Below, piece after piece: positions 7,643-7,954 of a DNA stretch of 23,570 nucleotides; the stretch's first letter is position 1, and every line of letters starts with the position of its first letter. The DNA lies in IMG/VR virus record IMGVR_UViG_2563366944_000005; one strand, given 5' to 3'. Under the pieces are notes generated by a model. It worked only from the letters and a program-made list of their open reading frames with translations. It searched no databases and had not been told where the DNA came from. A program made the translations under genes and the position numbers. The DNA is from a virus. Taxonomy: Duplodnaviria; Heunggongvirae; Uroviricota; Caudoviricetes.

Positions 7643-7646
<4 letters not shown>

Positions 7647-7954
7647 AGATATTTATGATGAGGACGCTCGTGCTTATTGGCAGGATTTTCAATCTTAAAG
7701 GAGTACTGATGCTGCAGATAAGACTCAACTTTTTCTGACAATTTTTCTGCTACTTCCAGGAAGACTTGCCGGACGCTCCTTCTGGCTGCTGCCTCATAAA
7801 ACTCCAGCGCAGCTCCTTCAACACGGTCCATGGCGACATCCAGGTCAAAAATTTCACCGTCAAAGCGTTCTTTGTCCTGTAAGGCTACAGTTACCGTAAC
7901 TTTATTCTCAAAATTACGGACTCCTTTCACAACCAGTTCATAGTCTTGAGTCAT
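7643..7954 (-). CDS. ydfR: ydfR-like protein of unknown function (103 aa) between holin and endolysin
   Basis: Track ORF; ATG with GGAGAG SD; stop overlaps the endolysin start (ATGA); no transmembrane segment; acidic. Confidence 0.75.

Follow-up and report, generated by a model that had tools for sequence, protein, structure and literature searches.

ydfR of a Qin-type prophage as a candidate passenger gene in a lysis cassette, with a possible role in RNase E/G-dependent RNA decay

The ydfR gene of a Qin-type prophage, contained in a 23,570-nt stretch of viral DNA (hereafter the window), is best read as an optional passenger among the late genes that does not belong to the holin-endolysin-spanin machinery and whose product likely modulates RNase E/G-dependent RNA decay; taken as a whole, we consider this reading about evenly balanced between right and wrong. 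The optional presence of the gene, together with the location of distant relatives elsewhere, argues against a core role in lysis and for a passenger on the late transcript. Modulation of RNA decay is the likeliest activity because the conserved domain of the protein associates with RNase E and RNase G, and the protein co-purifies with RNA.

The ydfR gene and its lysis cassette

The open reading frame list of the window contains a 103-aa frame running from ATG to TGA on the minus strand, and its product is identical in 103 of 103 residues to YdfR of Escherichia coli K-12 (b1555, UniProt P76160). The whole essQ-ydfR-rrrQ-rzpQ block matches the cryptic K-12 prophage Qin at 1750 of 1751 nt. The protein spans the complete Pfam profile PF07041 (DUF1327, profile positions 1-93 of 93) with a score of 179.9 bits, the curated cutoff for this profile being 25 bits, and NCBI designates the family as 'YdfR family protein'. 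Both the gene and the DUF1327 family are already catalogued and not new. YdfR was nonetheless still listed among the uncharacterised 'y-ome' genes of E. coli K-12 in 2024 (PMC11551758), and a literature search on DUF1327 and on rrrQ/essQ found nothing about function. The frame is more than a chance ORF, since the family is conserved across phages and comparison of well-diverged alleles gives dN/dS values of 0.27-0.35 for its N-terminal domain, synonymous sites being close to saturation.

The first-pass annotation of the window had described a soluble, acidic, ydfR-like 103-aa ORF of no known function, located between a pinholin and a SAR-type lysozyme, and much of that description stands. The ORF is real, and its likeness to ydfR amounts to identity. 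The computed pI is 5.56 for the whole protein and 4.62 for residues 1-72, and the maximum of 0.67 in a 19-residue Kyte-Doolittle window indicates a protein without a transmembrane segment. No function has been established for YdfR. An S21-type holin gene (S) and a lysozyme gene (R) do flank ydfR, and the labels 'pinholin' and 'SAR' are to be taken as denoting homology and sequence features only. In addition, YdfR matches five PHROGs of unknown function, the part common to these matches being restricted to the first ~77 residues.

The predicted products of the neighbouring genes outline a lysis cassette of the holin, lysozyme and spanin type (Table 1). The essQ translation displays an MKSM dual-start motif and ~94% amino acid identity to EssD of DLP12. 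The rrrQ translation combines a Gly/Ala-rich N-terminal membrane or signal segment with an E-x8-D-x5-T motif, and the gene shows ~85-90% nucleotide identity to R of Stx phages and mEp460. The presence of cspI, ynfU, cspB, cspF and Q-antiterminator genes in the flanking DNA confirms a Qin-type prophage. In strain MS 21-1 (L004), which provides the best match to the window, genes for portal, protease, decoration, capsid and terminase proteins adjoin the Qin-like region. Because these structural genes look intact in MS 21-1, the prophage of the window (positions 1-6000, as judged via MS 21-1) may be more complete than the classical cryptic Qin of K-12.

Table 1. Features of the ydfR region and of related loci (positions refer to the window unless a locus is named).
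Feature	Position	Strand	Basis
essQ, 71-aa S21-type (class II) holin	7959..8174	-	PF04971 E=1.1e-33; annotation
GGAGAG Shine-Dalgarno motif, within the last holin codons R-G-E	7962..7967	-	7 nt ahead of ydfR ATG
ydfR, Qin-type short allele, 103 aa, DUF1327	7643..7954	-	PF07041 E=1.1e-53; 100% identical to b1555
Conserved DUF1327 N-domain, codons 1-72	7739..7954	-	alignments, stand-alone relatives, AF2 pLDDT 81, dN/dS
Variable helical tail, codons 73-99, remaining from the C-terminal half of a 174-aa form	7657..7738	-	aligns with the long form of L012, ending at L012 position 2870
Deletion joint and recruited lysozyme leader	7643..7656	-	homology blocks against L012
rrrQ, 177-aa phage lysozyme	7113..7646	-	PF00959 E=1e-23; phrog_7 endolysin
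rzpQ, Rz-like i-spanin, DUF2514	6619..7116	-	PF10721, phrog_312, K-12 annotation
rzoQ, Rz1 lipoprotein, embedded in rzpQ	6669..6923	-	K-12 annotation; translation
Sigma-70 promoter-like site TTTATA-16-AATAAT, upstream of essQ	8300..8327	-	consensus scan
Strong intrinsic terminator AAACCCGCTCAGGCGGGTTT plus T-run, between cspB and essQ	8627..8646	-	8-bp stem, 5 GC pairs
Convergent partner ORF, locus L012	3039-3320	-	
Convergent partner ORF, locus L003	2958-3218	-	
Convergent partner ORF, locus L001	3817-4131	-	
Convergent partner ORF, locus L010	3740-4042	-	
Convergent partner ORF, locus L007	3749-4048	-	

The hexamers of the promoter-like site upstream of essQ are those of an RpoD constitutive promoter of the essQ operon that was flagged as H-NS-bound in a genomic SELEX study (Shimada et al. 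2014, PMC3946193). Given this match, the cassette may possess a private promoter that is silenced and does not depend on Q antitermination. Read-through from the cspB cold-shock promoter was considered as a trivial source of cassette expression and rejected, because the strong terminator between cspB and essQ, which also lies just 3' of ynfU on the plus strand, intervenes; the reported cold induction of the cluster is hence not accounted for by simple read-through. On the minus strand, the cspA thermoregulator RNA (Rfam RF01766) is matched over its full length twice, at 8912-9304 (158.8 bits) and 6017-6402 (112.8 bits), the matches covering the 5' leaders of cspB and cspI, the genes that flank the lysis cassette.

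The gene slot downstream of the holin gene, and how the ATGA overlap arose

The junction between the holin gene and ydfR reads GCGAGAGGAGAGTAATCCAATG, with a 4-nt gap separating the two genes and the GGAGAG motif contained in the holin reading frame. In DLP12 and phage cdtI, the same type of holin gene overlaps an R21-type endolysin gene directly (...AGAGGTGAATAATG). In the Stx2 phage phi24B, it is followed after a 4-nt gap by a lysozyme gene of the 177-aa, Qin-like type (...GGGGAGAGTAAGCTGATG), in the layout GGAGAGTAA-4nt-ATG of R. A Shine-Dalgarno motif at the end of the holin gene thus directly precedes R in these phages, as GGAGAG in phi24B and as AGGTGA in DLP12 and cdtI. The occurrence of GGAGAG in cassettes without ydfR indicates that the motif is a conserved part of the holin gene 3' end, and that it was not brought in by ydfR. 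At the level of sequence, these junctions show a holin-embedded Shine-Dalgarno that would serve any gene placed 4 nt downstream of an S21-type holin gene.

Genes of the DUF1327 family occupy exactly this slot in Stx2 phage 86 (268 aa), mEp460 (104 aa), PhiR12_2 (169 aa) and a metagenomic Qin-like phage (174 aa), and in every E. coli-type cassette examined that carries such a gene, it lies in this slot behind the holin-embedded Shine-Dalgarno. The long DUF1327 proteins (174 aa in P0023/L012/phrog_34145; gp05 of Stx2-86; the PhiR12_2 protein; mEp460_055) share with YdfR the N-terminal domain, and their genes likewise start 3-4 nt behind that of the S21-type holin, with its Shine-Dalgarno motif. 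They differ in carrying mutually unrelated C-terminal extensions, and their genes are usually separated from R by a small convergent ORF plus a non-coding leader. The Qin allele has lost this convergent ORF and leader, and overlaps R directly, its TGA stop codon being superimposed on the lysozyme ATG (7644..7646) as ATGA.

The origin of this arrangement was traced by comparison with locus L012, in which the gene order is ydfU-Q-orf-S-DUF1327(174 aa)-[convergent 93-aa ORF]-R-Rz. Positions 8200..7657 of the window are collinear with L012 2326..2870 at 85.5% identity, and positions 7652..7113 with L012 3451..3990 at 88% identity. According to these two collinear blocks, Qin lacks ~580 bp in which L012 has the 75 C-terminal codons of the long gene, its convergent 93-aa ORF and the greater part of the lysozyme leader. 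In ydfR, the final four codons (CAT AAA TAT CTA) and the TGA correspond to the lysozyme leader ...GATAAATATCCATG, which is conserved in mEp460, Stx2-86 and PhiR12_2 and is non-coding there and in L012. The alignments hence show the Qin ydfR to be a truncated derivative of the 174-aa form generated by a ~580-bp deletion, and the ATGA overlap to be an accidental by-product of the fusion of its frame to the leader. The same short cassette is present in the isolated phages HannyBb, PhiR42_1 and mEp460_ev081, and is therefore not confined to cryptic prophages.

A search for a recognisable Shine-Dalgarno in the leader of the 177-aa lysozyme gene (GATAAATATCCATG) returned none, either in the leader of the window gene (7113-7646) or in L001, L002, L003 and L012. 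The absence of such a motif extends to phages in which no upstream ORF is coupled to the lysozyme gene. Translation of the lysozyme from the Qin allele is probably coupled to that of ydfR, because the lysozyme leader offers no recognisable Shine-Dalgarno.

These results recast the architecture proposed in the first-pass annotation. Its statement that phage-21-type cassettes hold no gene at this position is borne out by DLP12 and cdtI, in which S overlaps R, and the ATGA overlap that it reported is present in the sequence. The GGAGAG motif that it assigned to ydfR as its own is likewise present, but belongs to the holin gene 3' end common to cassettes lacking ydfR. Its proposal of translational coupling into the lysis cassette loses weight as purposeful design, the Shine-Dalgarno being that of the holin gene and the overlap a product of the deletion.

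The frequency of the gene was assessed in phage records and in complete genomes. Among 50,697 phage records, the S21-type holin was identified in 438 and DUF1327 in 100 of these, the latter being present in 2 of 124 Stx2a, 41 of 47 Stx1a and 15 of 17 Stx2c phages. The 5,426 complete E. coli genomes contain 15,333 matches to holin DNA, compared with 4,897 places of ydfR-like DNA, which are distributed over 3,647 genomes (about two thirds). The use of a diverged Stx-type allele as query adds further loci, with 1,311 genomes matching most of that query. We roughly estimate the gene to be present at one third to one half of E. coli holin loci. Copies of the Qin type are at least 99% identical in about 1,700 genomes. 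An association of ydfR with the 177-aa lysozyme type was considered and rejected, since phi24B has that lysozyme without ydfR.

A core lysis gene would be expected in every functional cassette of the same type, yet phi24B, cdtI and DLP12 do without DUF1327. The suggestion that the ORF could be a lysis regulator fares poorly against this distribution. The first-pass annotation had itself named frequent absence as telling against the idea, and such absence is apparent in the phage record counts and in the direct S-R junction of phi24B; relatives of the gene, moreover, lie beside another holin class or a tail gene. Its proposed survey of the S-R junction finds DUF1327 not to be a constant element, with DLP12, cdtI and phi24B lacking it. 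Its other suggestion, of a cargo gene that rides on the late transcript, is favoured here, the gene being optional and S and R adjoining directly in phi24B.

The lambdoid morons and accessory genes of the Q-S-R region (stx, nanS-p, methylase genes and the Qin cspB/cspF) offer the closest comparison, as they share with ydfR an optional, mosaic presence on the late transcript. In agreement with a moron, ydfR is an optional insertion between otherwise adjacent S and R genes. A consensus scan for a promoter or terminator between S and R returned none, however, and the base composition of the gene is not distinct (GC 0.44, against 0.46-0.51 for the neighbouring genes). Unlike classical morons, ydfR is therefore without a promoter and terminator of its own, is embedded in the operon and uses the Shine-Dalgarno of the holin gene.

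The DUF1327 family and its conserved domain

The homologues of YdfR have residues 1-72 in common and continue into many unrelated tails, some of them clearly frameshifted, the C-terminal extensions being highly variable (72 to 287 aa). The DUF1327 alleles share 38-47% amino acid identity, against ~79-85% nucleotide identity for the flanking S and R genes. DNA homology between the Qin and mEp460 alleles ends near codon 67, and that between the Qin and Stx-type alleles stops ~30 nt into the gene. The alignments revealed four invariant residues (Y5, Y53, E54 and A57), all of which are present in YdfR. Evolutionary rates indicate that the N-terminal domain is under purifying selection.

AlphaFold2 models of YdfR were built from a more diverse alignment, yielding five concordant models with mean pLDDT values of 79-81. 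They contain antiparallel strands at residues 5-14, 18-27 and 34-43, a long helix at 50-89 and a disordered end. The conserved unit is hence predicted to be a soluble, acidic domain of ~72 aa made up of three strands and a long helix. Foldseek searches of this model against PDB and BFVD produced no match at E<=1e-3, and a sequence search against PDB chains gave chance matches only (E >= 0.6). No significant similarity in fold or sequence to an RNase E modulator or an RNA-binding domain was observed. Searches for known lysis-category families in Pfam, PHROGs and NCBIfam returned only DUF1327 and families of unknown function. With the PADLOC defence models, the Qin protein had no match and the long forms had marginal matches only (E>0.003).

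An exhaustive profile search against 1.84 billion representative proteins recovered 75 clusters, including stand-alone members of 72-76 aa, and no link to a larger superfamily emerged from it. Five IMG/VR contigs encode 72-aa DUF1327 members, two of which were scanned against Pfam and scored 28.5 and 52.1 bits, above the cutoff. A convergent ORF of ~100 aa adjoins the 72-aa gene in all four contigs for which ORFs were listed. In L010, Q is followed by the DUF1327 pair and then by a lambda-type holin, a GH19 endolysin and Rz/Rz1; the 72-aa protein of this locus is 100% identical to one from a Pantoea genome (L018). In L009, the DUF1327 pair precedes two holin genes and a lysozyme gene. Some distant relatives accompany a different holin class (PF05106). 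The usual setting of the family, a late lambdoid phage or prophage region beside a holin gene, is also that of ydfR, with exceptions occurring among distant members. In L006 and L007 (2857-4048), the 72-aa gene and its convergent partner lie right behind the gene for lambda tail assembly protein I, far from lysis genes.

Convergent partner ORFs of 86-104 aa follow DUF1327 in most non-Qin contexts, sometimes overlapping its 3' end (Table 1). The partners of L012 and PhiR12_2 are homologous (39% identity, E=2e-16), as are those of L007 and L010 (64% identity). A single family comprising all convergent partners was rejected, these being the only homologous pairs and the three groups being unrelated to one another. 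DUF1327 and a convergent ORF may form a recurring two-gene module. Six database proteins (P0034, P0052, P0075, P0083, P0096 and P0099) combine PF04971 and DUF1327 in a single polypeptide. Stop-loss or a frameshift across the 4-nt gap, or the choice of an upstream alternative start in gene calling, is the probable origin of these combined proteins.

Candidate functions of YdfR

Published interaction data provide the main lead on the activity of YdfR. With RNase G as bait, a bacterial two-hybrid screen yielded a fragment comprising residues 1-72 on three occasions (Gopel et al., RNA Biol 2026, PMC13232886). The same study reports stronger two-hybrid signals for YdfR with full-length RNase E and with Rne1-597, residues 1-72 being sufficient for the signals with RNase E and RNase G, and no signal with Rne1-415 or Rne1-498 (PMC13232886). 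Full-length T25-YdfR gave a signal with Rne1-597 only (PMC13232886). In co-purification assays, Rne1-598-FLAG co-eluted with Strep-YdfR, and the Strep-YdfR eluate contained ~330 ng/ul of DNase-resistant nucleic acid, compared with <=11 ng/ul in controls; the lysates had not been treated with nuclease, and the authors allow for a contaminant as the RNA binder (PMC13232886). Overexpression of YdfR changed few transcripts in RNA-seq and left growth unaffected, and the ydfR gene cluster yielded almost no reads under standard growth (PMC13232886). Since these data consist of two-hybrid signals and of co-purification from such lysates, RNA bridging or an overexpression artefact could account for the apparent association with RNase E.

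Phage-encoded modulators of RNase E are known in T4 (Srd), T7 (the gp0.7 kinase) and phiKZ (Dip, gp37). Like YdfR, these are small phage proteins that associate with host RNase E, although no significant homology or fold similarity links YdfR to any of them. Srd and YdfR also have in common their association with the N-terminal catalytic half of the enzyme (YdfR data from PMC13232886). A further parallel is provided by RapZ, an E. coli adaptor that binds the RNase E catalytic domain together with RNA and that, in the same assay, co-purifies with Rne1-598 and RNA as YdfR does; the authors group YdfR with RapZ-like 'group II' binders (PMC13232886). The two proteins are nevertheless unrelated in fold and size, and differ in their two-hybrid pattern, YdfR being silent with the two shorter RNase E fragments.

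Under the preferred reading, ydfR would be an optional accessory gene of the passenger or moron type occupying a plug-in slot 4 nt behind the S21-type holin gene, where any occupant would be translated from the Shine-Dalgarno within the last holin codons. A ~580-bp deletion in the 174-aa form gave rise to the Qin allele, fusing its frame to the lysozyme leader and creating the ATGA overlap, with the probable coupling of lysozyme translation to ydfR as a side effect. The acidic N-terminal domain of ~72 aa would constitute the functional unit, associating with the catalytic half of RNase E, with RNase G and with RNA, and YdfR would thereby modulate RNA decay dependent on host RNase E/G during late lytic growth, for instance by protecting or re-routing the long late transcript. 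Among the observations that count against parts of this reading, most contexts still place DUF1327 beside lysis genes, which leaves room for a lysis-related role, the gene is without the private promoter and terminator of a classical moron, and the acidic N-terminal domain (pI 4.6) is atypical for an RNA binder. It is possible, if doubtful, that the DUF1327 N-terminal domain defines an unrecognised phage family of RNase E/G catalytic-domain binders that are expressed from the late/lysis operon in a large proportion of E. coli lambdoid prophages and tune the decay of late phage or host RNAs, with tails and partner ORFs specifying their targets.

The passenger might instead serve another end, such as superinfection exclusion, anti-defence or counter-defence, or lysogen fitness, the link to RNase E and RNA being an artefact or the result of an RNA bridge. 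The mosaic distribution of the gene in a hot-spot for accessory genes between Q and R, the variability of its C-terminal extensions, the small convergent ORFs, of three or more unrelated families, that often accompany it, and the much greater divergence of its alleles relative to the flanking S and R genes are all in keeping with such a role, as is the weak transcriptome effect of overexpression (PMC13232886). No PADLOC defence model gave a meaningful score, however, all PHROG matches are of unknown function, and three independent appearances in the two-hybrid screen together with a controlled co-purification speak against a random origin of the RNase E link; we regard this alternative as rather unlikely. 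An inert remnant is less likely still. It would reduce the truncated Qin ORF to a translational bridge towards a lysozyme gene without a Shine-Dalgarno, as could be expected of a deletion product with its last four codons drawn from a non-coding leader and no such motif visible upstream of rrrQ. The near-identity of Qin-type copies across genomes would be accounted for by vertical transmission of a cryptic prophage and not by selection, frameshifts or fusions affect many of the alleles in databases, and transcripts are almost absent under standard growth (PMC13232886). Against this, the deletion spared the complete conserved N-terminal domain, purifying selection acts on the family in general, and the same short allele persists in isolated, propagating phages. 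Furthermore, YdfR reaches stable levels in the cell and interacts with specific partners (PMC13232886).

A regulator of lysis timing would also suit the position of the gene, with YdfR being made in step with the holin and binding it (for instance at the very basic C-terminal tail of the holin) or the endolysin. RIII of T4, an antiholin that is soluble and cytoplasmic, offers a parallel, since YdfR too would be a small protein of this kind and its gene lies among those for lysis. The gene sits directly behind that of the holin and is read from the Shine-Dalgarno embedded in it in the E. coli-type cassettes examined, its distant relatives mostly adjoin lysis cassettes, and the acidic N-terminal domain is complementary in charge to the basic holin tail. 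Yet YdfR has no homology to RIII, ydfR is missing from most cassettes with the same holin, including those of viable phages with the same lysozyme type, and some relatives accompany the PF05106 holin class or lie next to a tail gene. No similarity to a lysis-category PHROG or Pfam family was found. In phage 21, the dual start of S supplies its own antiholin, and S21-type holins, including the one encoded here with its MKSM motif, already encode an antiholin by this means. The Keio ydfR mutant has been scored as CPRG+, that is, envelope-defective, in the supplementary tables of Paradis-Bleau et al. 2014, the main text of which does not mention ydfR (PMC3879167). This phenotype speaks for a function in lysis, but it may plausibly reflect a polar gain of rrrQ lysozyme expression by read-through from the kan cassette. 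Such an effect would follow from the Keio design, because the cassette keeps the downstream ribosome entry and places the kan promoter upstream of rrrQ. Overexpression of YdfR, moreover, causes neither a growth defect nor lysis (PMC13232886), and control of lysis timing appears quite improbable.

The preferred reading, of a passenger that likely acts on RNA decay, bears on a gene whose function matters because ydfR-like DNA resides in about two thirds of complete E. coli genomes and the gene is still uncharacterised. The identification of a passenger slot, with the Shine-Dalgarno inherited from the holin gene and the ATGA overlap from a deletion, shifts the focus from lysis timing to RNA decay and to the 72-aa domain. 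Caution is also advisable with the envelope defect published for the Keio ydfR mutant, which polarity on the lysozyme gene downstream might explain. Should the RNase E link hold true, temperate lambdoid phages would join T4, T7 and phiKZ in targeting RNase E, the central enzyme of RNA decay in the host, and would do so via a late gene.
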